A stretch of DNA of 32,000 nt from Trichodesmium erythraeum IMS101. GTDB taxonomy: Bacteria; Cyanobacteriota; Cyanobacteriia; Cyanobacteriales; Microcoleaceae. Shown piece after piece: positions 637-30,419 of this stretch. The notes beneath the pieces are model-generated. The model was not told where the DNA came from and searched no databases. It was given only the letters and a program-made list of their open reading frames with translations. The position numbers and the translations under genes are program-made. Where the stretch lies: NCBI RefSeq assembly GCF_000014265.1, contig NC_008312.1, positions 6,180,001 through 6,212,000 on the forward strand. The letters run 5' to 3'. Numbering within the stretch: position 1 is the first letter of the stretch; every line of letters begins with the position of its first letter.

Positions 637-3600
637 TTAAGTTAATACTGAGTTTTTTGTCTGAGATAGTAAGGCTTTTATCTGAGGATTTTCTAATAAT
701 TTGGCTGCATCTGCTATTAGTTTATCCCCCCAAAGTTCTTTTTTCAGGCGCTTCGAGGAACCCCAACTTTTATCTGATTTTAGGGCGGCTTCAGTTGTTG
801 CTAAACTTTCTGGAATTTTACCTTTTTTATAGAGGGCAACTCCTATTGCTAATTTAGGTTCTACGAGTTGGTTATTAATTTCAGTTGCGGCTTGCCAATT
901 TTCTATTGCTTGATCTATAAAACCCATTTCATATTTAACTAAACCAAGATTAATAATAGAATATTCATCGTCTGGTTTAATTTCTAAAGCTTTTTCATAA
1001 GCAGCAACAGCCTCTTCATATCTTTCTAATTTTATCAGAGCATTGCCTTTCAAAAACCAAGCTTCGTGAAAGTCAGGTTTAATTTCTAAAGCTTTTTCAT
1101 AAGCAGCAACAGCCTCTTCATATCTTTCTAATTTTATCAGAGCATTGCCTTTCAAAAACCAAGCTTCGTGAAAGTCAGGTTTAATTTCTAAAGCTTTTTC
1201 ATAAGCAGCAACAGCCTCTTCATATCTTTCTAATTTTATCAGAGCATTGCCTTTCAAAAACCAAGCTTCGTGAAAGTCAGGTTTAATTTCTAAAGCTTTT
1301 TCATAAGCAGCAACAGCCTCTTCATATCTTTCTAATTTTATCAGAGCATTGCCTTTATTGTGCCAAGCTTCGTGAAAGTCAGGTTTAATTTCTAAAGCTT
1401 TTTCAAAAGCAGCAACAGCTTCTTCATATCTTTCTAATTTTCCCAGAGCTATGCCTTTATTGTGCCAAGCTTCGTGAAAGTCAGGTTTAATTTCTAAAGC
1501 TTTTTCATAAGCAGCAACAGCCTCTTCATATCTTTCTAAATTTCCCAGAGCATTGCCTTTCAAAAACCAAGCTTCGTGAAAGTCTGGTTTAATTTCTAAA
1601 GCTTTTTCATAAGCAGCAACAGCCTCTTCATATCTTTCTAATTTTATCAGAGCATTGCCTTTCAAAAACCAAGCTTCGTGAAAGTCAGGTTTAATTTCTA
1701 AAGCTTTTTCATAAGCAGCAACAGCCTCTTCATATCTTTCTAATTTTATCAGAGCATTGCCTTTCAAAAACCAAGCTTCGTGAAAGTCAGGTTTAATTTC
1801 TAAAGCTTTTTCATAAGCAGCAACAGCCTCTTCATATCTTTCTAATTTTATCAGAGCATTGCCTTTCAAAAACCAAGCATCGTGAAAGTCAGGTTTAATT
1901 TCTAAAGCTTTTTCATAAGCAGCAACAGCCTCTTCATATCTTTCTAATTTTATCAGAGCATTGCCTTTATTGTGCCAAGCTTCGTGAAAGTCAGGTTTAA
2001 TTTCTAAAGCTTTTTCAAAAGCAGCAACAGCCTCTTCATATCTTTCTAATTTTTCCAGAGCTATGCCTTTATTGTTCCAAGCTTCGTGAAAGTCAGGTTT
2101 AATTTCTAAAGCTTTTTCAAAAGCAGCAACAGCTTCTTCATATCTTTCTAAATTTCCCAGAGCATTGCCTTTCAAAAACCAAGCATCGTGAAAGTCAGGT
2201 TTAATTTCTAAAGCTTTTTCAAAAGCAGCAACAGCTTCTTCATATCTTTCTAATTTTATCAGAGCTATACCTTTACCATTCCAAGCATAGTGATAGTCTG
2301 GTTTAATTTCTAAAGCTTTTTCATAAGCAGCAACAGCCTCTTCATATCTTTCTAAATTTTCCAGAGCATCTCCTTTATTGTGCCAAGCATAGTGATAGTC
2401 AGGTTTAATTTCTAAAGCTTTTTCATAAGCAGCAACAGCTTCTTCATATCTTTCTAAATTTTCCAGAGCTATGCCTTTATTGTGCCAAGCTTCGTGAAAG
2501 TCAGGTTTAATTTCTAAAGCTTTTTCATAAGCAGCAACAGCCTCTTCATATCTTTCTAAATTTTCCAGAGCTATGCCTTTATTGTGCCAAGCTTCGTGAA
2601 AGTCAGGTTTAATTTCTAAAGCTTTTTCATAAGCAGCAACAGCCTCTTCATATCTTTCTAATTTTCCCAGAGCTATGCCTTTTAAAAACCAAGCTTCGTG
2701 AAAGTCAGGTTTAATTTCTAAAGCTTTTTCATAAGCAGCAACAGCCTCTTCATATCTTTCTAATTTTCCCAGAGCTATGCCTTTTAAAAACCAAGCATAG
2801 TGAAAGTCAGGTTTAATTTCTAAAGCTTTTTCATAAGCAGCAACAGCCTCTTCATATCTTTCTAAATTTCCCAGAGCATTGCCTTTATTGTGCCAAGCTT
2901 CGTGAAAGTCAGGTTTAATTTCTAAAGCTTTTTCAAAAGCAGCAACAGCCTCTTCATATCTTTCTAATTTTTCCAGAGCTATGCCTTTATTGTTCCAAGC
3001 TTCGTGAAAGTCAGGTTTAATTTCTAAAGCTTTTTCATAAGCAGCAACAGCCTCTTCATATCTTTCTAAATTTTCCAGAGCTATGCCTTTATTGTGCCAA
3101 GCTTCGTGAAAGTCAGGTTTAATTTCTAAAGCTTTTTCATAAGCAGCAACAGCCTCTTCATATCTTTCTAAATTTCCCAGAGCATTGCCTTTCAAAAACC
3201 AAGCATCGTGAAAGTCAGGTTTAATTTCTAAAGCTTTTTCAAAAGCAGCAACAGCCTCTTCATATCTTTCTAATTTTTCCAGAGCTATGCCTTTATTGTT
3301 CCAAGCTTCGTGAAAGTCAGGTTTAATTTCTAAAGCTTTTTCAAAAGCAGCAACAGCTTCTTCATATCTTTCTAATTTTTCCAGAGCTATGCCTTTATTG
3401 TTCCAAGCTTCGTGAAAGTCAGGTTTAATTTCTAAAGCTTTTTCAAAAGCAGCAACAGCTTCTTCATATCTTTCTAATTTTTCCAGAGCTATGCCTTTAT
3501 TGTTCCAAGCTTCGTGAAAGTCAGGTTTAATTTCTAAAGCTTTTTCAAAAGCAGCAACAGCTTCTTCATATCTTTCTAATTTTTCCAGAGCTATGCCTTT

Positions 3601-5721
3601 ATTGTTCCAAGCTTCGTGAAAGTCAGGTTTAATTTCTAAAGCTTTTTCAAAAGCAGCAACAGCTTCTTCATATCTTTCTAAATTTCCCAGAGCATTGCCT
3701 TTTAAAAACCAAGCATAGTGAAAGTCAGGTTTAATTTCTAAAGCTTTTTCATAAGCAGCAACAGCCTCTTCATATCTTTCTAAATTTCCCAGAGCATTGC
3801 CTTTCAAAAACCAAGCATCGTGAAAGTCAGGTTTAATTTCTAAAGCTTTTTCATAAGCAGCAACAGCCTCTTCATATCTTTCTAAATTTCCCAGAGCATT
3901 GCCTTTCAAAAACCAAGCTTCGTGAAAGTCAGGTTTAATTTCTAAAGCTTTTTCATAAGCAGCAACAGCCTCTTCATATCTTTCTAAATTTCCCAGAGCA
4001 TTGCCTTTCAAAAACCAAGCTTCGTGAAAGTCAGGTTTAATTTCTAAAGCTTTTTCATAAGCAGCAACAGCCTCTTCATATCTTTCTAAATTTCCCAGAG
4101 CATTGCCTTTCAAAAACCAAGCATCGTGAAAGTCAGGTTTAATTTCTAAAGCTTTTTCATAAGCAGCAACAGCCTCTTCATATCTTTCTAAATTTCCCAG
4201 AGCATTGCCTTTCAAAAACCAAGCATCGTGAAAGTCAGGTTTAATTTCTAAAGCTTTTTCATAAGCAGCAACAGCCTCTTCATATCTTTCTAAATTTCCC
4301 AGAGCATTGCCTTTCAAAAACCAAGCTTCGTGAAAGTCAGGTTTAATTTCTAAAGCTTTTTCATAAGCAGCAACAGCCTCTTCATATCTTTCTAAATTTC
4401 CCAGAGCATTGCCTTTCAAAAACCAAGCTTCGTGAAAGTCAGGTTTAATTTCTAAAGCTTTTTCATAAGCAGCAACAGCCTCTTCATATCTTTCTAAATT
4501 TCCCAGAGCTATGCCTTTCAAAAACCAAGCTTCGTGAAAGTCAGGTTTAATTTCTAAAGCTTTTTCATAAGCAGCAACAGCCTCTTCATATCTTTCTAAA
4601 TTTCCCAGAGCATTGCCTTTCAAAAACCAAGCTTCGTGAAAGTCAGGTTTAATTTCTAAAGCTTTTTCATAAGCAGCAACAGCCTCTTCATATCTTTCTA
4701 AATTTATCAGAGCTATGCCTTTCAAAAACCAAGCTTCGTGAAAGTCAGGTTTAATTTCTAAAGCTTTTTCATAAGCAGCAACAGCCTCTTCATATCTTTC
4801 TAAATTTATCAGAGCTATGCCTTTCAAAAACCAAGCTTCGTGAAAGTCAGGTTTAATTTCTAAAGCTTTTTCATAAGCAGCAACAGCCTCTTCATATCTT
4901 TCTAAATTTATTAGTGCACTGCCTTTATTGTTCCAAGCATTGTAATCATTTGGTTCTATTTTTAAAGCTTCATCACAAGTTAATATTGCCTCTTCATTTT
5001 GCTGCAACTTTCTATCTAGAGAAGCCTTTCTAACTAACAAATCTGCTTTTTGTCCTACAGGAAGCAAATCTTCATCAAGTAAACTTTTAATGCTCACCAA
5101 TTCAACTTTACACTCTGGCTTAGTAAACTCTATATAATCCTCTAATTTCTTTTCACGGACTTCCAAATATCCCTTATCAAAACTTTCCTGATCCATAGGA
5201 AACCGAAACAGCCCAGAACGCCAATCAAAAAAATCTGGCGCACGTTTAATCAGATAATTTATAGCAAACCTTGGCAACAGAAATACAAAGCAAATATCAA
5301 AATCATCCCTAAATCTTTCTCGCTGCTGATTCAAATTAATCAAAACCGGAGGAACACCTCTTCTGCTAATAGAAATAATCTCATTATGATCCCAACCTCT
5401 TTCCTTCATTTCATCCTCATATTGATAGAAAGAATATTCCAAACCAGTCACAAACAAAATATCAATTTCTTTCAGATTTGGTAATTCTTTGACTCGATTA
5501 TAAAAATGATAAATAGTCTTATCTAAACCCAAAACATCTGCTCTTTGCTCCGGAATATCCAGGCGAATTTTCTCCATAATTTCTGTTCCCTTTGCTCGAG
5601 AACATTCCGCAAACAATAAACTAAAACCCTCATTAAATCTAATAGTCTCTACTAAAGCTTCATATTCCTCTGTAAATGTTAACGAAAAATCCTCTTGCCA
5701 AATAATTCTTTCTCCCTTCAT
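637..5721 (-). CDS. Giant TPR-repeat protein (1694 aa): ~260-aa N-terminal non-TPR region, one divergent TPR, 39 near-identical 34-aa TPRs, ~110-aa C-terminal TPR-like cap
   Basis: Single uninterrupted ORF. The repeat AWFLKGNALGNLERYEEAVAAYEKALEIKPDFHE fits the TPR consensus (W4, G8, A20, Y/F24, A27, P32). AGGAG lies ~10 nt upstream of the ATG. The start overlaps the stop of the upstream ATPase ORF (ATGA at 5718-5721). Confidence 0.9.
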   Translation of the reverse strand: MKGERIIWQEDFSLTFTEEYEALVETIRFNEGFSLLFAECSRAKGTEIMEKIRLDIPEQRADVLGLDKTIYHFYNRVKELPNLKEIDILFVTGLEYSFYQYEDEMKERGWDHNEIISISRRGVPPVLINLNQQRERFRDDFDICFVFLLPRFAINYLIKRAPDFFDWRSGLFRFPMDQESFDKGYLEVREKKLEDYIEFTKPECKVELVSIKSLLDEDLLPVGQKADLLVRKASLDRKLQQNEEAILTCDEALKIEPNDYNAWNNKGSALINLERYEEAVAAYEKALEIKPDFHEAWFLKGIALINLERYEEAVAAYEKALEIKPDFHEAWFLKGIALINLERYEEAVAAYEKALEIKPDFHEAWFLKGNALGNLERYEEAVAAYEKALEIKPDFHEAWFLKGIALGNLERYEEAVAAYEKALEIKPDFHEAWFLKGNALGNLERYEEAVAAYEKALEIKPDFHEAWFLKGNALGNLERYEEAVAAYEKALEIKPDFHDAWFLKGNALGNLERYEEAVAAYEKALEIKPDFHDAWFLKGNALGNLERYEEAVAAYEKALEIKPDFHEAWFLKGNALGNLERYEEAVAAYEKALEIKPDFHEAWFLKGNALGNLERYEEAVAAYEKALEIKPDFHDAWFLKGNALGNLERYEEAVAAYEKALEIKPDFHYAWFLKGNALGNLERYEEAVAAFEKALEIKPDFHEAWNNKGIALEKLERYEEAVAAFEKALEIKPDFHEAWNNKGIALEKLERYEEAVAAFEKALEIKPDFHEAWNNKGIALEKLERYEEAVAAFEKALEIKPDFHEAWNNKGIALEKLERYEEAVAAFEKALEIKPDFHDAWFLKGNALGNLERYEEAVAAYEKALEIKPDFHEAWHNKGIALENLERYEEAVAAYEKALEIKPDFHEAWNNKGIALEKLERYEEAVAAFEKALEIKPDFHEAWHNKGNALGNLERYEEAVAAYEKALEIKPDFHYAWFLKGIALGKLERYEEAVAAYEKALEIKPDFHEAWFLKGIALGKLERYEEAVAAYEKALEIKPDFHEAWHNKGIALENLERYEEAVAAYEKALEIKPDFHEAWHNKGIALENLERYEEAVAAYEKALEIKPDYHYAWHNKGDALENLERYEEAVAAYEKALEIKPDYHYAWNGKGIALIKLERYEEAVAAFEKALEIKPDFHDAWFLKGNALGNLERYEEAVAAFEKALEIKPDFHEAWNNKGIALEKLERYEEAVAAFEKALEIKPDFHEAWHNKGNALIKLERYEEAVAAYEKALEIKPDFHDAWFLKGNALIKLERYEEAVAAYEKALEIKPDFHEAWFLKGNALIKLERYEEAVAAYEKALEIKPDFHEAWFLKGNALIKLERYEEAVAAYEKALEIKPDFHEAWFLKGNALGNLERYEEAVAAYEKALEIKPDFHEAWHNKGIALGKLERYEEAVAAFEKALEIKPDFHEAWHNKGNALIKLERYEEAVAAYEKALEIKPDFHEAWFLKGNALIKLERYEEAVAAYEKALEIKPDFHEAWFLKGNALIKLERYEEAVAAYEKALEIKPDFHEAWFLKGNALIKLERYEEAVAAYEKALEIKPDDEYSIINLGLVKYEMGFIDQAIENWQAATEINNQLVEPKLAIGVALYKKGKIPESLATTEAALKSDKSWGSSKRLKKELWGDKLIADAAKLLENPQIKALLSQTKNSVLT
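961..4938. repeat. Tandem array of 39 x 102-bp units (coding, inside the TPR gene)
   Basis: A 102-nt period is directly visible (e.g. ...gtgaaagtcaggtttaatttctaaagctttttcataagcagcaacagcctcttcatatctttctaa...). By eye about four-fifths of each unit is invariant across all copies. Runs of fully identical units and duplicated 4-unit blocks are present. Confidence 0.95.
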
Positions 5722-7043
5722 TTCACCAACTCCTGAAACTTTTGTAATCCTCTAATCAATGGATGAACATCATACCAAACTTGCTTTTCTCCCTTCTTAT
5801 CATAGTAAACATATTCTAGTAAACAACGATTAAATAATAAATCCCGATACTGTTGATTATTCAACACATTTTTATTACGAAAAACATTTGCCAATACTTG
5901 CCATTCTTCTTCCTGAACCGACCTTTGATAAGACACTCTTGCTTCTGTAATTGCTCTTTGTACAACCCCAGCAGATATAGGTAATTTACCTCTAGCACGC
6001 TTAATTACACTTTGCATTAAAAACATTAAATCCCGAACATGACCTCCACTCGTTAAACAAACTTTATCCAACACTTCTCCACTTTCAAACAAGTCTTTTT
6101 CTAAAGATAAATCCGACTTAACTTCCTTCACCCGCCTATCAATAATTTCCCTAACTTTAGCAACTCCTGATTCATAAACTTCCCCTTCCCGAGTCTCCAC
6201 CATAATCATCGGTAAAACTTGAGGTTCATCATATTCAACCTTCAGATTAGGAGCCTTATTAGAATAGACCATTGAAATAGGAATTGTATAAATTATATGG
6301 CAATCTAATCCCTTTAATTGGGCACTACGATCTAAAAAAATTTCATCGTGATTACTACGTCCGTCCGGCCGATCAATTGGAACAATGCGGTCTAAATTAT
6401 CCGCAATTATTACCAGTTTTGAACCAGAACCAAGCTGATTTTTAGCATCACAAATAAAAGCATTTACAGCATCAATTAAACTTTCAGTATAAGGATTCAC
6501 TCTATCTCGAATTTTTTTTCTTAGAGTAGGTTCAGCCCTAATATTTGCCGTAAGTTTTGCATACTGACTAATTTGTGATTCAACCTCCAAGTTTTCCAAA
6601 GATATTTTCGTAGTTGCTAAGTCTTTTAAATCTTCCCACCGTCCCTTTAACCAATCTAATAGTGGTTGAGGATTAGCCTTTTTTAACTTTTCTAATAAAT
6701 GTCTCGTACAAGCCAACAAAATATCAACATATTCCGTATCTTCTGGATTAATATCATTTTCATCTGCAGCAAAATAAACTACACAATATCTCTGATTTTC
6801 CAGGTATTTTTGCAGTCGTAAAAGTTCAGTTGACTTACCCCCACCTCGATGTCCGGCATAAAGTTGACAAGTATTATCATCAGAATATTCAATATTCTCA
6901 GCTAAATCTTTAATAACATCTCCATCTCCCCTAACTTCGCTACAGTCAACATATACTCGACTATCAGCTTGTAGAGGTTCAGAAGGTTTAAAAGAATTAT
7001 ATAATTTTTTCAATAAATGTCTCTGATCTGTCTGATTTTCCAT
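5718..7043 (-). CDS. P-loop NTPase (AAA+/STAND-like ATPase), 441 aa, translationally coupled to the TPR protein
   Basis: Walker A is GHRGGGKST and Walker B-like is KLVIIADNLD, followed by a helical C-terminal half. AAGGAG lies ~11 nt upstream of the ATG. The stop overlaps the start of the downstream ORF. Family assignment beyond P-loop NTPase is not resolvable by eye. Confidence 0.85.
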   Translation of the reverse strand: MENQTDQRHLLKKLYNSFKPSEPLQADSRVYVDCSEVRGDGDVIKDLAENIEYSDDNTCQLYAGHRGGGKSTELLRLQKYLENQRYCVVYFAADENDINPEDTEYVDILLACTRHLLEKLKKANPQPLLDWLKGRWEDLKDLATTKISLENLEVESQISQYAKLTANIRAEPTLRKKIRDRVNPYTESLIDAVNAFICDAKNQLGSGSKLVIIADNLDRIVPIDRPDGRSNHDEIFLDRSAQLKGLDCHIIYTIPISMVYSNKAPNLKVEYDEPQVLPMIMVETREGEVYESGVAKVREIIDRRVKEVKSDLSLEKDLFESGEVLDKVCLTSGGHVRDLMFLMQSVIKRARGKLPISAGVVQRAITEARVSYQRSVQEEEWQVLANVFRNKNVLNNQQYRDLLFNRCLLEYVYYDKKGEKQVWYDVHPLIRGLQKFQELVK

Positions 7044-15827: not shown

Positions 15828-16351
15828 AGCGATGAAGTGACTAGCCTGTTAAACATAAGGTAAAGATAAGCTGTAAATATTTCCAGTTTAGTTGAAAAAT
15901 AAGTCAAATATTATGATTAAAGTTTTTGTCCTTAAATATTAGGAAGTATACATGAAATTAATATCATATCAGTAATTGGGTTGTTTGAGTTTAGCAGGCT
16001 TTAAAGTTATATTCAAAATTTGGGTGATAAGCTTTCAGTAAACCAATATCAAAAAAAAGTAATTGATAAATACCTATAGTTTTATTTGTTCAGTGATGAG
16101 CAATAATTTCCATGAAAAACCTGAGAAAATAAAATTATCTGCCAGAGTTGACCACATAGGGGACATGGCAAATAATTTTATCTGTAATGAAGGTGAATAT
16201 AGGTGTTTGTCAAAGTTCTTCACATTCCGAACCCTGGAGCAGTTCTTTTTTGATTCTGCTCTTGTTTTGTGCTCGCTCAATCTAAGTTTACGAAGTTTTC
16301 GTTTTTGATAATAAAAACCAAGTAAGATTAAAAATTTGGAGGAATTTTCCT

Positions 16352-16486
16352 GTATCAATTCGTTTGTATATTGGTAATTTGTCTAAAGGGGTAATGGAAC
16401 GTCAAGAACTGCAAGACGTTTTTCAGGAAGAAGGTGATAGTGTCACCACTAAATTGATCACAGATCGTAAAACTGGTAAATGGTGA
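16352..16486 (+). pseudogene. Truncated upstream copy of the rbp 5' coding region, start codon destroyed (ATG to GTA)
   Basis: It reads VSIRLYIGNLSKGVMERQELQDVFQEEGDSVTTKLITDRKTGKW*, compared with MSIRLYIGNLPKEVMERQ...TGKCRGFGF in the intact gene. It ends at the duplication junction. Confidence 0.75.
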
Positions 16487-16526
16487 ATATAGCTATTTCT
16501 CAAAGTTCTTTACATTTCCAACTATG

Positions 16527-16550
16527 GAGCAGTTTTTTTTGATTCTGCTC
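16527..16550 (+). promoter_or_regulatory. Conserved 5'-leader hairpin of rbp (GAGCAG - 12 nt U-rich loop - CTGCTC)
   Basis: A perfect 6-bp stem is present in both duplicated leaders (also at 16237-16261) despite substitutions around it. It lies ~90 nt upstream of the rbp ATG. Confidence 0.35.
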
Positions 16551-16640
16551 TTGTTTTGTGCTCAGTCAATTTAAGTTGACTAAGTTTTCGTTTTTGATAA
16601 TAAAAACCAAGTAAAATTAAAAGTTCGGAGGAATTTTCCT

Positions 16641-17117
16641 ATGTCAATTCGTTTGTATATTGGTAATTTGCCTAAAGAGGTAATGGAACGTCAAGAACTG
16701 CAAGACGTTTTTCAGGAAGAAGGTGATAGTGTCACCACTAAATTGATCACAGACCGTAAAACTGGTAAATGTCGTGGCTTTGGCTTTGTAACAGTCAAAA
16801 ATGATGAGCAAGCTGACCAAATTATTGAAAAGTATAATGGTTTTCAGTTTAGAGAGACTCCTTTAAAGATTGAAAAAGCCTTGCCTCGCTCTAAAAATAA
16901 AACTGAGTCGGAAAATACTGAGGCTGAAACACCTAAAACAGTTAGTAAAAACAACCCTAGTAAGAGTAAAAAGTCTCGTCGTGATAAAGATAAAGGAGGA
17001 GTATCTAAGACTTCTAGTGGTTCTTCTAATAGTAATGAATCAGTCCAACCTGATCCTCGTTGGGCTGATGCTTTAGCTGAGTTAAAGCAACGTTTGGCAG
17101 CTAGCACTAATTCTTAG
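16641..17117 (+). CDS. RRM-type RNA-binding protein with a long Ser/Lys-rich tail and C-terminal PDPRW motif
   Basis: RNP2 is LYIGNL and RNP1 is CRGFGFVT. GGAGG lies 9-10 nt upstream of the ATG. There is no Gly-rich tail. The C-terminal PDPRWADALAELKQRL resembles the non-glycine-rich class of cyanobacterial Rbp proteins. Confidence 0.92.
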   Translation: MSIRLYIGNLPKEVMERQELQDVFQEEGDSVTTKLITDRKTGKCRGFGFVTVKNDEQADQIIEKYNGFQFRETPLKIEKALPRSKNKTESENTEAETPKTVSKNNPSKSKKSRRDKDKGGVSKTSSGSSNSNESVQPDPRWADALAELKQRLAASTNS

Positions 17118-17544
17118 GAATCAGTTGCATAAACTCAAAAATATTGTCAAACTGACATCATTAGACTTGTCGCTTTATAACTTAAAAAATCACCAAAAAC
17201 TAAGTTCAGTAAAGATTGTAGCTATTGGGAAATAAAAAAATTGAAATTATTGCTCTGTCTAGGTTGGAGCGATTTTTTCCCTCTATTTAGCGACAACTCT
17301 ATTGTAGATATCCTTTTGTAACCATTTCTATACCTAAATAGGTAGAAAAAATTATTTGTGTATTTAAAGATTGTATATGTATATAAATCCAGAATAGATA
17401 AGCCAGAAGATTATCCTTATGGTTATGGAGAATTGAAAAAATAGTACCACTATTAAAAGTTAGGAAAAAGAACTGAGATAGTAAGTTTTTGTGCAACTAT
17501 AAATCAATTAAAAATGTTGGCCTATTTAACATTTACACCGAAGT

Positions 17545-17823
17545 TGTAATAGTGATTTGTTTGATAACTGGTTAGAAAATTTTTGACTACCAAAATTATA
17601 ATCGGGACAAGTGATCGTACTGGATAATGCAACATTTCATAAATCAGTTTATATTCAATAATTAGTGGCCAAAGCTAAGTGTGAAATCTGGTGTTTACCA
17701 CCATTATGGCTAGATTTTAATCAGATAGAACGTTGGTGGTTTGTTTGAAAAAATTTGCTCAGACAAAGACTCAAGGAATTTGATGATTTTCGTATTGGGT
17801 GTGGATACAGCTTTTCTTGAACT
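17545..17823 (+). mobile_element. IS630-family transposase C-terminal remnant (stops in frame)
   Basis: It translates to ...DLFDNWLENF*LPKL*SGQVIVLDNATFHKSVYIQ*LVAKAKCEIWCLPPLWLDFNQIERWWFV*KNLLRQ. This matches the IS630 DDE region (DNAxFHK ... LPPYSPDLNPIE..W). Confidence 0.75.
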
Positions 17824-18110
17824 ACCTCAATTTTTTCTGTAGTGGCGAAAGATGTCCATTATTTCTTTGACAGGCTTGGTTGCATGAAGGTGGGGATCGC
17901 GCTCACATAATACTGTTATTTTTTAGTTGTCTGTGAAATCAAAGTCCAACCCGGGAGTCCATAATACCAATTCCCATAACTAGGGTTTGCTGAATAAATC
18001 TAAAAAACTTACACAATAATGATTTTAAGTATTTTTAATCATAAATAGTATCTAAGTTTCAGTTAAAATAGACTAAAAATTAGGTATCTATAATCCACAC
18101 TCCATATAAA

Positions 18111-18316
18111 GAAAAGTAGGCCAACGTGATACTCTAACAGAAAATTTTCAACCGGCGTTCAATGGCCAATTATCCCCAGAGTGATGACTAGTTTAATTCC
18201 TTGGGAAAAATATGAAGATGTATATGCAATCTTTTTCTCCACCATGCATAGGAGCACCTGGATTAAATTTTAGAATAGAATTAGGGGCGTTCATTATTAA
18301 ATAAAAATTAGGTATA
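18111..18316 (+). mobile_element. N-terminal fragment of an IS4/IS5-superfamily transposase (DUF772-like), degraded
   Basis: It translates to GQRDTLTENFQPAFNGQLSPE**LV*FLGKNMKMYMQSFSPPCIGAPGLNFRIELGAFIIK*KLGI. The pattern LIPWEK...GxPG..R..LGA.IIKxKLG is typical of InsH-type N-termini. The family call is tentative. Confidence 0.5.
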
Positions 18317-18469
18317 TTTGAAGACAAACAAATAAAATAGGATTGCTATATATTTAATGATTTTTTTTATATTAAACTCTTTTTGATCATCAAACTTTCA
18401 AATTTTAAATTTAACTTTTTTATTTATTTTTATTTCAATCTCTTTCTTCTGAACAGCCACATAAATATA

Positions 18470-19170
18470 AGCAGTTTTAAAAAATTATCATTCTTCAAAA
18501 ATGTATAAACTTCCAAAGTATATTGTTTGTCATCAGGCAATAAATTAACTGCCTTAATAGCATCCTTAAATTCTACATCCAAATGTTTACATCGTGGATA
18601 AATTTTACCAACATAATGGTGGTTATTCTTGATTAGTAAAGTTCCTAAAAAAATATGACTAGACCTACATATTTTTATGTTTTTTACTTTTTTACCAGAA
18701 TTACTGAAACACCAGCCAAAAATATCTAAGTACTAATATTGCTGAAACTCAGCATTAATAACAGGAGCATCAAAACAAATAGGATAGCAATCTTGATTAC
18801 TTAATTTAATATCTTGAATTAAGAATGATAAAAAGAAAAATCAGGTTGTTGACTGTGTAAAATCTCAAAAATTGGTCTATCTAATAATCTCTTACTTGCA
18901 AACCAATAGTAATAGTAATAGAAACCATTAATACCATGCTTTACTTTCTTTCTAATTTTGCTTGGGCACCCCTCACTTCTAACAAGCACAAATCGTAAAA
19001 TCCTAAATCAGTAGGTAGTTTCGGTTGATAATGTCCTTCAAACAGTGGTTTTGCTTTGGTAACATTTGTCGACTCTGTAAACACTTTACCCCACCATTCA
19101 TCATTTTCTGGAATTGGATGAAACTAAGGAAGAAAAAAGGCAATTAAACGTACTTGAGCCTCGGTTTTTA
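18470..19170 (-). pseudogene. WbsX-family (GH99-like) glycosyltransferase pseudogene, truncated with multiple stops
   Basis: The reverse strand reads [57 protein letters not shown]... This matches the hallmark [27 protein letters not shown]-terminus. The frame then collapses. Confidence 0.75.
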
Positions 19171-19304
19171 AACTATCTATCTACTTGATTATACTTTAAG
19201 TTTTTGGAATTGATGTAAACGGGTAATTTCAGGATTCAATAAACATCTCCAAAATAGAAAATAAGGTAAAATTATCAAAACCATTTATGTATAAAGTCTC
19301 CCAA

Positions 19305-20200
19305 ATGAATCCAACTTTAGAATATATTTATAATCATCCAAAATAAACAAAAAGAATTATTGGCATTACTTATGAACAGCTAATAAAATTAATAGCAAAG
19401 GCCTAAGTAATAGAATCAGAGAAAAAGGAGGCGATCGCCAAAACAGAAAAAAGATTAATTAAAGCAGGTGGAGTCAGAAAAAAGAATTTAACAAAGGAAG
19501 AAGAAATAATTTTAACGTTATTTTATTTACATCAAATACCAACTTTTCAAACATTAGGAATTAACTTTGGTATAAGTGAATCAAGTGCTAATAATATTTT
19601 TCATTACTGGATAGATATTCTCAGAGAATTACTGCCAGCAAGTTTATTAGAACAAGTAAAAAAAAAGAAAATGAATTGGAATGGGTAAAGGAGATATTAA
19701 CAGAATTAGAATTAATTGTAGATAGTACAGAACAAAGTAGAGAAAGACCAAGTGAATATAAAGACCAAGAAAAATATAAAATATGAAAAAATAAAAATCA
19801 TACTTTTAAAAATCAAATAATAACGACACCAAAAGGAACAGAAATAGTAGATGTAATAGTAGGAGAAAAAGGTCCAGTAAGTGATGTAAAAATATTAAGA
19901 AAACAACAGGATAAATTTGATAAAAAACAAAAGTTTCAAGGAGATAAAGCTGATGAAGGAGTAGAAAGAACTACTACACCAAAAAAGAAACCAAGAAAAA
20001 AAGAAATGCCGCTAGAAATCAAAGAATAAAATCAAGAAAAAGCCAGAAAGAGAATATTTGTAGAACATATAATAAGATTAATTAAAATATTTAGAATTGC
20101 TAGAGAAAGATTCAGATTAAAAGATAATAATTATCAAAAAGTAATCTTAACAATATGTGGTTTAGTGCGACTAAGAATTGGCTCTTTTATATTAGTAAAA
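19305..20200 (+). mobile_element. IS5-family / Harbinger-like (DDE_Tnp_4) transposase pseudogene
   Basis: HTH region: LTKEEEIILTLFYLHQIPTFQTLGINFGISESSANNIFHYWIDILRELLP. This is followed by IVDSTEQS..RP, HTFKNQII, TTPKKKP and a C-terminal RIFVEHIIRLIKIFRIARERFRL..ICGLVRLR. There are many stops and frameshifts. Confidence 0.75.
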
Positions 20201-20296
20201 ACCATCAAAAGCCGAGATAAAAATAATAAATCAAAGTACAATAAATATTTGAATTAGTAACACGAAGTATCTCTGATGCCCATAAAACTGTACAAA

Positions 20297-20775
20297 TTAA
20301 CTATCTTCATAAGTAGCGATCGCACCACTAAAGATAGTTAGGATAAATGTTTGAGTATTTTTGGAGATGTCTAATTCTATCCCCTTTTTTAGGGGAGCAA
20401 TAGCCTCCTCAAACTTAACCATCTCCCTCAAAGTCAGCCCCAAATTAAAATGCCTCCAGGCAAAATCTGAATTCAAAGTAATCATTTGCAGATATACAGC
20501 TAACGCATCTTCCCAGTGCTGCTGCTGGAATAAAAATCCCCTAGCTTTTGCTACAATTGCTATGTATACTTGATCTTGTTATTGTTAACATCCCAGAAAT
20601 CAGATTTTAGCGAGCTAACTTTCTTGAAACACTCATAAGCCTCTTCAAATTGCTCCAAATTAACCAAAACTAAATCTAAGTTATGATGAACCTAAATCTC
20701 ATCTGGCTTCAACTTCAAGGTTTGACGATAGGCTTGTGAAGGGTCTTCCCACTTCCGTTTTTGCTCAGAGTTCAT
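20297..20775 (-). pseudogene. Degraded TPR-protein gene fragment
   Basis: The reverse strand reads MNSEQKRKWEDPSQAYRQTLKLKPDEI*VHHNLDLVLVNLEQFEEAYECFKKVSSLKSDFWDV..., then the 62-aa ORF ..FAWRHFNLGLTLREMVKFEEAIAPLKKGIELD. The spacing is TPR-like, with stops and frameshifts. Confidence 0.5.
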
Positions 20776-21540
20776 TGTTGAAGTAAAACTAAATTAGCAG
20801 TGACGTACAATTAGTGATTTTTGCAGTTATAGTCCTAAAAGTAAAAAGAATTTAATCATTTTACAGTATGTCTCAATTAGTAGAGAAGGCTATAAATATT
20901 TTTGTGACTATTATTTGAGTTGTAAAAATTGATATTACAGGAATCTCTAAACAGCCAGAAAAAGATGATACACAGCCAAACGGCATCATAAGGTTGCTCA
21001 AGAGTTCAAGCCTTGTATTTTCTTCTGTATTAGATTACTTGTTTGACAAGCCGAGGATTTGATGATAAAAGCTTCATATATGACAGGCATTTAGTAGAGT
21101 TATTGGTAAATAAAAATTGAAAAGACTCAAAAGCTTACTATTAATGGTTTTGAGTATTTTAGTACTGAAAAACACTATAAGCTTTGACTTAATTTTGGTT
21201 TTATATTATGTCCGTTAATATCGTTTGTGTAAAAGTTTGGACAATATCTATCGTCATATAAGGTTGTTCTTCCTTTTAAAGCTTCTTCCTTCTTTCTTAC
21301 CTTCTCTATACAATACCGATGCTACCGGACATAATATTAGCCTTTTTTTTTAAAATAGCTAAAACCTAAAACAAGTCCAGGTTTATAGTGCTTTTGAGTA
21401 TTAAAATCCTGAAAGCATTATAGAGTAAACTTTTGAGCATTTTAAATCTTTATTTCCAAACAACTCTGATGTATTTTTAGTGATTATTTCAGAGATTTAC
21501 ACTATAACTAGTGCCTTTACGTAAGTCATGTTCCAGTTTA

Positions 21541-21656
21541 AATTACTCCCACAGAATTAAAATGGCCATCATAAGCTAGGGATTATCTGGGGATAGTCGG
21601 TTCTTAAGTGACCATTTAAAATTTTCTGGCGTCGGCCTAGATTAGCCTACTTTTTT
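21541..21656 (-). mobile_element. Second, inverted copy of the same IS 5'-end fragment as 18111-18316
   Basis: The reverse complement shares AAAAGTAGGC, CAGAAAATTTT, TATCCCCAGA and TTTAATTC..TGGGA with 18111-18230, in the same order and interrupted by indels. Confidence 0.5.
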
Positions 21657-21950
21657 CTACTTAATTACTGCAAATAGATGCCTGAAAATTGCTGTATTTT
21701 AGCTTCAAAGAGGTAAATATTTCTTTTTCTAAAGATGCTTAAATACTTACTGTGCAAGTTTTTAGATTGAATCAGTAGGCTTTATATAGAAACCATTTGA
21801 TATCTCTATTGATTAATCATTAGCTTTACAGCTTCTTGGTTTAATCCTTATTGGCACAAATACCCTCCACTAGTCCATTACCTAGGTCGAAATTACTTAT
21901 ATGGCTTGGTGAAGTAGCTAATTTAGCTTGAAAAAGATACCAAATGAATT

Positions 21951-28450: not shown

Positions 28451-29416
28451 TTAAATTTTAGCTGTATTTTTATTATTAATGGCCGCAGATTCTGTTACGT
28501 TTCTGAGAGTTCCTAGGTAAGTTCTGTAAGAAGTGCCACCTGTACCATAAACAGTATTATTATTTTCACCTGGATTAGATATGTATTTAGGAATCATTTT
28601 TAAATGATTAGTTCGCATCAAAAGAATTTTGTCAATACAGTTATTGTAAGCTTCTCTTAAATCTGGAGAATTATTGTCCATGACAAAGTTTCTTACTAGG
28701 CTCTTATGATAAGTTTCTTCCAAAAAATTTCTATGAGGAGCTGGCATATAGTTAACAAAACCGTAGTAATTTTCTAGAACTAACTCTACAGGAAGTTCTT
28801 GTTTTTCGTTAAGAATTTTTCTTTGTACAGGATCTAGAGACATACAACCCATAATCCTATCTAATAAAGGCATTGCAATGCTTTTAGAACCAGTTTCTCC
28901 TCTGAGAACTGAAGCATTAATCTCGGTACCTTGATAAACAAGCTCAAGGTTATTGTGCCATCCCTTGAGAAACTGTCTGATGTATTTTCTGAAAATTTCA
29001 GGAGACACAATCTTCTCTGTAGTCATAAAAACATCTTTTATGTTAACAATCGTATTAGCCATTTCTCGTAAGACAATAGTTAGAGAAACTGCATCTTTTT
29101 CCTCCGCTAGCTCATCGCTTTTATCCCTTGCCGATAACACTCCCTAGCAGCTGCTTCATAGGCTACATGAACAGTTATGAATTGGTCTTCATCTTCTAAA
29201 ATGAAAATGTAACCAGACTTTTAAGATTGTTTGTGGTAAAATCTCCAGTTGGATCTTGTTTTCTCCAGTTTCTTAAGACATAATCAGCATAGTTGAGTAT
29301 TGGTGGTTCTTTCAATCTTTCTGAAACCTAAACCAAAGGAATAGCAATCTGTGATGGAAGAACTGTTCTTGGTTCAGGTTCCCCTAAAGTATCGTCAAAA
29401 GTTGAATAAAAAGTCA
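28451..29416 (-). pseudogene. Indoleamine 2,3-dioxygenase (IDO)-like gene, 5'-truncated and frame-disrupted
   Basis: The C-terminal 229-aa ORF matches IDO (YMPAPHRNFL, LREAYNNCIDKILLMRTNHLKMIPKYI, GTGGTSY). The upstream pieces (LPSQIAIPLV*VSERLKEPPILNYADYVLRNW... and LEDEDQFITVHVAYEAAA) lie in other frames with a TAG. About 100 N-terminal residues are absent. Confidence 0.7.
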
Positions 29417-30075
29417 TACTTAGGTGCAAATTAACCCAACTATATAAACAGTATCACAATTTTTTCCGGGGTGCAAATCTAACTACCTCGACGTTTTTAA
29501 TGAGCTTCAGGAAATGATAATGGATTTATGCCCATCACATATAACAGCCTGATGGATTTTTTTGCCTAAAGATATAGTTTTAGTTGAATAAAAAGTCATG
29601 CTTAGGTACGAGTTAGCCCAACTATATAAACAGTATCACAATTTTTTCCGGGGTGCAAATCTAACTACCTCGACGTTTTTAATGAGCTTCAGGAAATGAT
29701 AATGGATTTATGCCCATCACATATAACAGCCTGATGGATTTTTTTTGCCTAAAGATATAGTTTTAGTTGAATAAAAAGTCATGCTTAGGTACGAGTTGAC
29801 CCCACTATATAAACAGTATCACAATTTTTTCCGGGGTGCAAATCTAACTACCTCGACGTTTTTAATGAGCTTCAGAAAATGAAAATGATTTTAGGGCGAT
29901 CGCCTATAACAGCCTGATGGATTTTTTTTTTGCCTAAAGATATAGTTTTAGTTGAATAAAAAGTCATGCTTAGGTACAAGTTAACCCCACTATGTAAATA
30001 GTATCACAATTTTTTCCGGGGTGCAACTCTAACTACTTGGACGTTTTTTTATAAGCTCCAGAAAATGATATAGAT
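29401..30075. repeat. Tandem array of 4 x ~183-bp non-coding units (starts 29401, 29583, 29766, 29951)
   Basis: Each unit starts gttgaataaaaagtcat.cttaggt and contains tatataaacagtatcacaattttttccggggtgcaa.tctaactac. Periods are 182, 183 and 185 bp, the difference lying in a T-run of 7, 8 or 10. The last unit diverges after ~120 bp. Confidence 0.9.
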
Positions 30076-30419
30076 TTTTCCTATTTTTTTAGATATTCTT
30101 TAGACAAAACTCTGTAAAAGAGTATCTTTAAAAAAATTGGCAGATTGAAGATTTTTTTTTGATAAAAGTTAGTAGCTTGAATCATATTTGTAGAGACATT
30201 CTAGAAAGCATCTCTACAGAAATTTTGAGGGCATAAAAATACTTACCAATAGATAATTAATAATTAATCCCCAAAGGCTTAAAACCTATTTTTAAGGATC
30301 AAAAAGAAATAATATTTCCGCATTTGCTTAAATCCTCTTAATTTTAACCGGAGGTAATTATTCATGATTAATTATCCATTATCCATTAATAAATATTCCA
30401 ATAAAAACTAATAATTAAT

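Follow-up and report, generated by a model that had tools for sequence, protein, structure and literature searches.

A shuffled array of 39 near-identical TPRs with a probably diversifying groove in a conserved cyanobacterial two-gene module

We analyzed a 32,000-nucleotide stretch of the Trichodesmium erythraeum IMS101 genome (NC_008312.1, positions 6,180,001 to 6,212,000; hereafter the window, with a GC content of about 34%). One of its genes, the TPR gene, encodes a protein with 39 near-identical tetratricopeptide repeats (TPRs), and the adjacent upstream gene encodes a P-loop NTPase. The reading that we favor, and consider somewhat better than an even bet, is that the TPR gene provides the repeat arm of a two-gene module conserved in cyanobacteria, that its array is shuffled by recombination, and that the groove of the TPR superhelix is a likely diversifying recognition surface. 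The array is regular, its units evolve in concert, and its variable sites lie at the ligand-contact positions of TPRs; the operon is conserved; and arrays differ in copy number and between strains. Selection, not local hypermutation, probably maintains the diversity. From canonical TPR geometry, the groove is a putative ligand-binding site, and the ATPase and the TPR protein may interact in a system for recognizing non-self.

Tandem Repeats Finder reports positions 970–4909 as a single array (period of 102 nt, 38.6 copies, 95% matches, no indels). The motif LERYEEAVAA, read in the frame of the TPR gene (637..5721, minus strand), is present 39 times at a spacing of exactly 34 amino acids. A preliminary description of this DNA had also counted 39 units and had placed them at 961–4938; the count stands, and the TPR register shifts the array by 6 nt, to 967–4944. 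This register comes from the repeat directly before unit 1 (amino acids 226–259), to which Pfam's TPR_8 and TPR_2 align over positions 1–34 of 34. The signature residues of TPRs (W4, G8, A20, Y/F24, A27, and P32) are present in all 39 units. Together with the in-register matches to hidden Markov models and with matches to multi-TPR models of NCBIfam (up to 1e-274), they identify the units as TPRs. On average, two units are 92.3% identical as DNA, across an array of 1,326 amino acids, and have a protein identity of 0.86 (in a count that includes the degenerate first repeat). There are 22 distinct units by DNA and 20 by protein, and the order of the unit types is ABBCDCCEECCEFGGGHEIHJKLIMNOPHQRSTCUQSSV. 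Three compositional zones run along the array, from FL-N-GN through NN/HN-I-E[KN] to FL/HN-N-IK (residues at positions 5–6, 9, and 12–13).

An AlphaFold2 model of the N-terminal domain with three TPRs (pLDDT, the predicted local distance difference test, of 88) superposes on the designed consensus TPR protein CTPR3 and on the complex of CTPR390 with an Hsp90 peptide, in both cases at 0.7–0.9 Å over about 100 residues; it also superposes on CTPR superhelices of eight repeats. The closest structures to the TPR part are 8chy, 2fo7, 3kd7, and 2wqh (root-mean-square deviations of 0.7–3 Å). The array is strongly acidic, with a net charge of -106, which favors basic proteins or peptides as ligands and disfavors nucleic acids.

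Most of each unit does not vary at all. The preliminary estimate that about four-fifths of the unit is invariant agrees with our count, as 79 of 102 nucleotide columns are constant (77%, or 81% if the two terminal units are excluded). Variation in amino acids is confined to positions 1 (in unit 1 only), 2, 5, 6, 9, 12, 13, 24, and 34, and the residues are those listed previously, to which we add N2 and Y1 (unit 1) and D34 (unit 39). Codons 2, 5, 6, 9, 12, and 13 are hypervariable, and the changes at 24 (Y/F) and 34 (F/Y) are conservative: of the 18 non-synonymous codon alleles that depart from the consensus, 14 lie in these 6 of 34 codons (P = 4e-8). Only about three synonymous polymorphisms had been reported. 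These are indeed the sole ones found in more than one unit (GAG/GAA, eight times; TTG/TTA, three times; CCT/CCA, three times), and there are five singleton variants besides (GGA and GGT at Gly8, GCA at Ala10, CTA at Leu11, and AAT versus AAC at Asn5).

The six most variable positions are exactly those at which the peptide is contacted in co-structures of TPR1 and TPR2A of HOP, namely 2, 5, 6, 9, 12, and 13 (PMC1261162). The chance of this agreement is 1/C(34,6), or 7e-7, and with the register fixed by Pfam it bears out the earlier assignment of the variable sites to the canonical groove. Across the TPR family, the hypervariable concave positions are 2, 5, 9, 12, 13, 33, and 34 (PMC1261162). 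The convex surface of helix B is as solvent-exposed as the groove and is invariant across the units (per-codon table). The codons frequently differ by 2–3 nt, right beside stretches of 60 nt that are identical.

The variants had been described as a small set of cassettes, and this did not hold up. There are 18 signatures (positions 2, 5–6, 9, 12, 13, and 24) among the 39 units, all four gametes occur at 106 of 136 informative site pairs, even for sites that are 4–9 nt apart, and all six combinations of codons 12 and 13 are present. The number of signatures and the four-gamete result imply that the variable sites re-assort freely rather than as fixed cassettes. A synonymous GAA at codon 19 mostly accompanies F24, with recombinant exceptions, which suggests that Y24F belongs to a hitch-hiking haplotype of helix B and is not a groove residue.

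To quantify homogenization, we pooled Nei-Gojobori estimates of non-synonymous (pN) and synonymous (pS) differences over pairs of units, for 28 scaffold codons and for the six groove codons. Within the array, the scaffold has a pN of 0.010 and a pS of 0.040 (pN/pS of 0.24), and the helix-B and packing scaffold is about 99% identical in protein between units. Between the Trichodesmium and Okeania arrays, scaffold pS is 0.42–0.44, which is similar to the pS of the non-repetitive N-terminal domain (0.37–0.42). We can therefore rule out synonymous constraint as the source of scaffold identity. Instead, the difference between 0.04 within the array and 0.43 between genera means that the units were homogenized or newly amplified after the genera split. 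For 36 of the 39 units, the nearest relative lies in its own array. Neighboring units differ by 4.9 nt, as compared to 7.9 nt if the order is shuffled (P < 1e-4). There are also exact repeats of 384, 323, and 297 nt at offsets of 4, 1, and 6 units, respectively, which indicate multi-unit duplication. Scaffold pS is also low (0.08) within the array of another Trichodesmium genome, the metagenome-assembled genome (MAG) MAG_R02. By all of these measures, the earlier proposal of a homogenized scaffold is well founded.

In the groove codons, pN within the array is 0.37 and pS is 0.31, a value that is inflated by multi-nucleotide paths. Groove pN is about nine times the pS of the interleaved scaffold codons (0.04), so relaxed constraint alone is insufficient. 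At the level of sequence, then, the second half of that proposal, that groove residues are kept diverse, also holds, and the turnover of signatures between genomes (below) points the same way. Where we could check, the variable residues did not map to the convex face or the packing core, and the orthologues did not show equal divergence at synonymous sites.

Closely related genomes carry quite different arrays. The N-terminal domain of MAG_R02 is 91% identical in protein to that of the window, and the flanks have a pS of 0.08–0.10. Its array has at least 26 units, at which point it runs off the contig, and it has the same scaffold with more alleles at the same positions. However, only 1 of 13 five-residue groove signatures is common to the two arrays, and they show no collinearity. 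Even at strain level, the array content differs: a metagenome contig (L091) has flanks that are 99.2% (N-terminal domain and ATPase) to 100% (DUF2518 gene) identical to the window's, but the first 254 nt of its array are only 87.4% identical, with the differences at codons 2, 5, 6, 9, 12, 13, and 24. The first of these differences is 12 nt away from unique sequence and hence no artefact of the assembly graph. Okeania orthologues have up to 35 units. Among short-read contigs with an identical ATPase, the last units disagree with each other.

Two sequences show very short arrays. In Trichodesmium sp. St17_bin3_1_1 (L092), just two TPR units are followed by the same C-terminal cap as in the window. 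In a fragment (P0004), the degenerate first repeat is joined directly to another C-terminal tail (GWYKLKE...), which is also found in Okeania (L022 and L025). Either such short alleles, with alternative C-termini, are real or the assemblies have collapsed. Exact-pattern scans with the invariant scaffold found no match in JGI metagenome contigs or IMG/VR. A word-indexed search for the unit in other proteins, as a sign of exchange between paralogues, found only short proteins with up to 65% identity; because this search missed known Trichodesmium fragments, its result carries no information on such exchange.

The features of the operon are listed in Table 1. The stop codon of the ATPase gene and the start codon of the TPR gene overlap by 4 nt (ATGA). 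In 70 of 80 related loci, the ATPase gene adjoins the TPR gene upstream on the same strand, and another four loci lack upstream sequence. The ATPase is 58–65% identical across cyanobacterial orders. It is predicted to have an AAA+ core, a helical domain, and a C-terminal winged helix (AlphaFold2, pLDDT of 76). Its best fold match in the PDB is archaeal Orc1/Cdc6 (2qby_A, E = 5.9e-6), followed by TnsC, BrxC, and RdrA; the TM-scores are low (0.24–0.28). Among 30 ATPase orthologues, sub-threshold Pfam matches were to AAA_16 (30 of 30), NPHP3_N (20 of 30), and ATPase_2 (19 of 30); the window's ATPase scores 22.9 bits for AAA_16, as against a cut-off of 32.6.

Table 1. Coordinates of the TPR gene, its parts, and the partner gene.
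Feature	Position in window	Strand	Description
TPR gene	637..5721	-	1694 aa, net charge -119, pI 4.9
C-terminal cap	637..966	-	aa 1586-1694 + stop; EYSIINLGLVKYEMGFIDQAIENWQ...PQIKALLSQ
TPR array	967..4944	-	39 near-identical 102-nt / 34-aa TPR units, aa 260-1585; consensus HEAWFLKGNALGNLERYEEAVAAYEKALEIKPDF
Degenerate first TPR	4945..5046	-	aa 226-259, ADLLVRKASLDRKLQQNEEAILTCDEALKIEPND; joins N-domain to array
N-terminal family-specific domain	5047..5721	-	aa 1-225
Upstream partner gene	5718..7043	-	441-aa P-loop NTPase; Walker A GHRGGGKST, Walker B VIIADNLDR

A Microcoleus gene pair shares the window's neighborhood, with two response regulators (one of them fused to a cyclase) and DUF2518, and this synteny implies that the locus is vertically inherited rather than a mobile defence island. 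The module is arranged differently in some Okeania loci. Okeania sp. KiyG1 has two paralogous copies (L016 and L025), and in one of them (L025, with a TPR protein of 1,447 amino acids) the ATPase homologue is downstream, not upstream. Also, insertions of 0.6–1.3 kb separate the ATPase and TPR genes in L016, L021, and L023. Our scan downstream of the TPR gene found no terminator above background (there is no terminator-like hairpin in 300–760), and a promoter scan upstream of the operon gave only generic -10/-35 matches. About 60 nt downstream of the stop codon of the TPR gene, at 540–579, a 21-bp unit is repeated 1.9 times.

The TPR protein is predicted to be cytoplasmic, as neither a signal peptide nor a transmembrane segment is evident. 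In the AlphaFold2 model described above, its N-terminal domain has five beta-alpha units and then helices that lead into the TPRs. The domain's invariant motifs are NQQRxRF and RAPDFxDWRS. At the site of a P-loop it reads ECSRAKGTEI, which is not a Walker A motif; across the family this site is ECS(P/R)AxG, which lacks the lysine and the Ser/Thr. One idea was that the domain is the partner ATPase's degenerate paralogue, and we rejected it when hhalign found no similarity. A fold search of the PDB with the model was swamped by TPR matches, and a fold search of a viral library gave only weak matches for the domain, to AAA+/clamp-loader and glycosyltransferase-TPR proteins. At the other end of the protein, the C-terminal cap consists of two to three divergent TPR-like hairpins (TPR_11 match at 2.4e-7), and the same cap ends the arrays of Okeania orthologues (L016 and L017).

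The N-terminal domain defines a family with 520 relatives in GTDB species genomes. The best 80 of these are all from cyanobacteria, and the genera include Trichodesmium, Okeania, Dapis, Microcoleus, Tychonema, Nostoc, Anabaena, Calothrix, and Leptolyngbya. A profile search returned 1,094 cluster representatives, and all 64 that we sampled consist of the N-terminal domain and TPRs only; none is fused to an NTPase, as a one-polypeptide NOD-like receptor (NLR) would be. Family proteins have from 2 to 40 TPRs and are elsewhere 321 to 1,447 amino acids long. In 55 members with at least six units, within-protein entropy peaks at positions 12, 9, 5, 34, 2, 13, 1, and 6. Unit identity is 0.44–0.78 in the other members, as compared to 0.86 in the window, whose array is the most extreme that we examined in repeat number and homogeneity. 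Many public entries of the family are labeled "partial" or end at a contig edge inside the repeats, and a word-indexed protein search with the N-terminal domain returned no member above 394 amino acids, even though genome loci encode up to 1,447. The true architecture of the family is thus under-represented in protein databases.

How might such a module work? We propose that gene 1 encodes a stand-alone AAA+ NTPase of the Orc1/Cdc6 or STAND type and that gene 2 encodes an alpha/beta N-terminal domain fused to a TPR superhelix, which in this genome has expanded to 39 canonical TPRs. The array would turn over by unequal recombination and gene conversion among the 102-bp units, with duplication of single units and of blocks of four to six. 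Conversion would keep the helix-B and packing scaffold uniform while it re-deals the six groove codons of helix A. The outcome would be a long groove whose chemistry is quickly re-dealt and is largely replaced between strains and sister species. These data agree with the model developed for the NLR repeats of fungi, in which recombination and conversion make the scaffold uniform and re-deal the groove at the same time, and in which selection favors new or diverse groove surfaces (PMC4986451). The groove is probably a diversifying surface for the recognition of proteins or peptides. Its occupancy might be reported through the N-terminal domain to the partner ATPase, so that the pair would act as a split, NLR-like sensor and switch against shifting ligands from non-self, for instance proteins of phages or filaments that are not kin. 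We consider a role in non-self recognition to be plausible.

Several observations weigh against this interpretation. The ATPase scores below every curated family threshold, including those for NACHT and NB-ARC, so it has no recognizable nucleotide-binding oligomerization domain (NOD) of the kind that marks such receptors. The N-terminal domain has no match in Pfam, NCBIfam, or the PDB by profile or sequence searches, and there is no recognizable effector domain in the module. The PADLOC candidate PDC-S20 matches the ATPase (E = 1.6e-6) only over residues 64–219, the region of the P-loop, and the defence model DS41_1 scores 20 bits against a cut-off of 370. The weak and partial match to PDC-S20 is universal among the ATPase orthologues. 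Nor is the locus in a defence island: it has no mobile elements, it lies among housekeeping genes, and it is syntenic between Trichodesmium and Microcoleus. Thus, neither the full-length match nor the genomic setting of a known anti-phage system was found. In the six variable codons, the Nei-Gojobori pN/pS is only about 1.2 (1.0 over all codons), so the case for positive selection depends on the comparison with synonymous sites in the scaffold. The same positions vary most in ordinary TPR families, so that the pattern by itself is generic. Finally, the number and order of the units are known from one assembly only. The exact 1,694-amino acid protein matched no other database record, and every short-read contig with an identical ATPase breaks about 1 kb into the TPR gene. 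Because these contigs stop inside the array, the exact unit number rests on that one assembly.

Some of these observations would fit a structural ruler or scaffold: a TPR superhelix that serves filamentous cyanobacteria in a conserved housekeeping role, as a long spacer or a platform for assembly, whose repeat number drifts by slippage and whose variable sites are simply the least constrained of its solvent-exposed residues. Vertical inheritance, synteny, and housekeeping neighbors suit a ruler, as do the high conservation of the ATPase (58–65% identity across orders), the lack of a detected effector domain, the classical pN/pS of about 1, and the tendency of TPRs in general to vary at these positions. 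However, relaxed constraint predicts that groove pN does not exceed scaffold pS, and we observed 0.37 versus 0.04. A ruler also does not lead us to expect codons that differ by 2–3 nt next to identical stretches of 60 nt, or an invariant face on helix B that is as exposed as the groove, or the replacement of nearly all groove signatures between sister genomes whose flanks have a pS of just 0.08–0.10. Overall, a ruler seems unlikely to us. An assembly artefact, in which a shorter repeat was mis-assembled into the present number and order of units or into the array's entire length, would account for the contigs that break off in the gene after about 1 kb and disagree in their last units, for the protein without a matching record, and for the Trichodesmium MAG with only two units before the same cap; units that are 92% identical across 4 kb are also what an assembler might confuse. 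But the frame stays open for 1,694 codons at 34% GC, there are no indels in 39 units, and the order of the units is structured rather than random. Another Trichodesmium assembly has at least 26 units and Okeania has up to 35, and the breaks in the assemblies themselves imply that natural populations do contain a long, near-identical array. We consider an artefact very unlikely; it is an unlikely explanation for the phenomenon itself, and the concern is with the exact count.

Two other explanations take the diversity to be real and account for it in other ways. If each repeat reads one monomer of a polymer through two to six variable residues, as in TALE (transcription activator-like effector), PPR (pentatricopeptide repeat), and PUF proteins, then we would expect near-identical units of 34 residues with a small alphabet of residues at fixed positions, including 12–13, as observed; the Asn-rich groove positions do resemble the Asn ladders that grip extended peptides, and three compositional zones could also reflect such a code. 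On the other hand, the TPR signature and fold are canonical, there is no known candidate polymer, and the order of the units differs even between sister genomes, which is not what a fixed target sequence would lead us to expect. The net charge of -106 also speaks against nucleic acids, so we disfavor a TALE- or PPR-like reading of the array in particular. A code reader of any kind strikes us as highly improbable. Targeted mutagenesis, with a diversity-generating retroelement (DGR) that acts on adenines as one example of a dedicated mutator, could yield A-rich variable codons (AAT, AAC, AAA, ATA, and GAA) and all six combinations at the adjacent codons 12 and 13, and active DGRs have been reported in Trichodesmium, as cited in PMC10907252. 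Yet there is no reverse transcriptase or template repeat within the 32-kb window, and many adenines in or near the variable stretch are invariant (codon 7, AAA, and codons 14–18, TTA GAA AGA TAT GAA), including those between variable codons; on these two results we reject adenine mutagenesis. Positions without an adenine vary too, such as the third base of TTT/AAC/CAC, and many units have alleles in common, as expected of duplication and not of independent mutagenesis. Known DGR targets have C-type-lectin or Ig-like folds and not TPRs, which also counts against this idea. A DGR is scarcely credible as the source of the diversity.

Beyond the reading that we favor, in which a recombining array bears a diversifying groove, the pair could be a split, chromosomally fixed, NLR-like system of filamentous cyanobacteria, in which shuffling of the repeats re-deals specificity and generates a repertoire at the somatic or population level, either for kin recognition or allorecognition among the Trichodesmium filaments of a colony or for the tracking of cyanophage proteins, with the N-terminal domain as a new coupling or effector module. 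This is a speculative proposal, and we think it is quite unlikely to be correct in full. In a stronger and more radical version, an extended ligand would be read element by element, one per repeat, and the array would amount to a programmable peptide reader of natural origin.

It is the hallmark of fast-evolving recognition domains, such as those of fungal NLRs and TALEs, that their repeats are nearly identical but hypervariable where they bind, and designed repeat binders have the same layout. Our results place this regime in a widespread and uncharacterized pair of cyanobacterial genes, from the lineage of an ecologically important, colony-forming diazotroph, and make the module a concrete candidate for how multicellular cyanobacteria recognize non-self. 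Engineers of repeat proteins should also find a natural, consensus-like superhelix of 39 TPRs of interest. And because short-read assemblies systematically truncate the gene, the true architecture of the family has been hidden.

The other genes of the window have housekeeping functions: CysS, an AI-2E transporter, an M48 peptidase, an RRM protein, phytoene synthase and desaturase, DnaK, DnaJ, and a glutathione S-transferase (GST). An Rfam scan found no RNA family anywhere in the window. At 16192–16771, a 289-bp tandem duplication (two copies, 92% identical) spans the 5' leader and roughly the first 43 codons of the gene for the RRM RNA-binding protein (16641..17117). In the start region, the upstream copy has CCTGTATCAATT where the gene has CCTATGTCAATT, so that the copy's ATG is lost, and this copy appears to be a dead duplicate of part of the 5' end. 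A 229-amino acid open reading frame (ORF) with a GTG start (28451–29140, minus strand) matches only positions 181–365 of the 412 in PF01231, indoleamine 2,3-dioxygenase, which is its C-terminal half, and could be a pseudogene or a gene that was truncated. Downstream of it, at 29400–30077, an intergenic 183-bp unit is repeated 3.7 times (92% matches; no Rfam match). From about 17120 to 21950, roughly 4.8 kb have no ORF of 100 or more amino acids on either strand and no Rfam family; this region includes the most AT-rich part of the window, at 18–20 kb (GC of 0.27–0.28).

The closest parallel to the array is in fungi. The TPR, ANK, and WD repeats of fungal NLRs combine high internal conservation (HIC) with polymorphism in repeat number and positive selection on the concave face (PMC4986451), and HIC repeats are defined as those that share more than 85% identity with each other across 100 amino acids or more. 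The window's array lies in this range, at 0.86 identity in protein and 92.3% in DNA over 1,326 amino acids. It also shows concerted evolution, with a scaffold pS of 0.04 as against 0.43 to Okeania and 36 of 39 nearest neighbors in the same array. Its content differs between strains with flanks of 99.2–100% identity, and unit number differs widely between species, so that the array may be polymorphic in the same sense. Like the HIC repeats of HET-E/HET-D/NWD and of the Podospora TPR protein Pa_2_10340 (Dyrka et al. 2014, PMC4986451), its units exceed 85% identity and are associated with a P-loop NTPase; in both, units are reshuffled in concerted evolution and the few variable positions are on concave helices, and repeat number, polymorphic in fungi, is probably so here. 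However, fungal HIC TPR units mostly have 42 residues, whereas the window's are canonical 34-residue units in a prokaryote, and the maximum reported for fungal TPRs is 21 units, so that an array of 39 is about twice as long. Also unlike in fungal NLRs, the repeats are on a separate polypeptide, the NTPase is not recognizably NACHT or NB-ARC, and no effector is recognizable.

Bacterial NLR-like or STAND sensors (Avs and bNACHT, or proteins with WD or TPR repeats that are 80–90% identical) likewise pair an AAA+/STAND-type NTPase with a TPR sensor, are enriched in filamentous multicellular bacteria, and in some cases have internally conserved repeats. Such conservation was noted, without analysis, for bacterial NLR repeats (bioRxiv 10.1101/2020.01.06.895854). 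These sensors are single polypeptides with effector, NOD, and repeats, whereas the window's pair is encoded by separate genes at a syntenic, non-mobile locus, and its NTPase, at 441 amino acids, has no repeats or effector and matches defence models only weakly. TALE arrays share 34-residue units that are nearly identical in DNA, hypervariable positions 12–13, and recombination between units. They differ in that W4, G8, A20, A27, and P32 mark the window's units as TPRs, which are acidic rather than basic, have more variable positions, and come with no evidence of DNA binding. Designed CTPR superhelices, including CTPR390, are also built of near-identical 34-residue TPRs that stack in a regular superhelix. 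In CTPR390, ligand specificity was grafted onto the groove positions of helix A, which is where the window's array, natural and five times longer, carries its diversity. The evolutionary regime is thus already known from the repeats of fungal NLRs; what is new is an unannotated, widespread cyanobacterial two-gene module with an array of 39 canonical TPRs.

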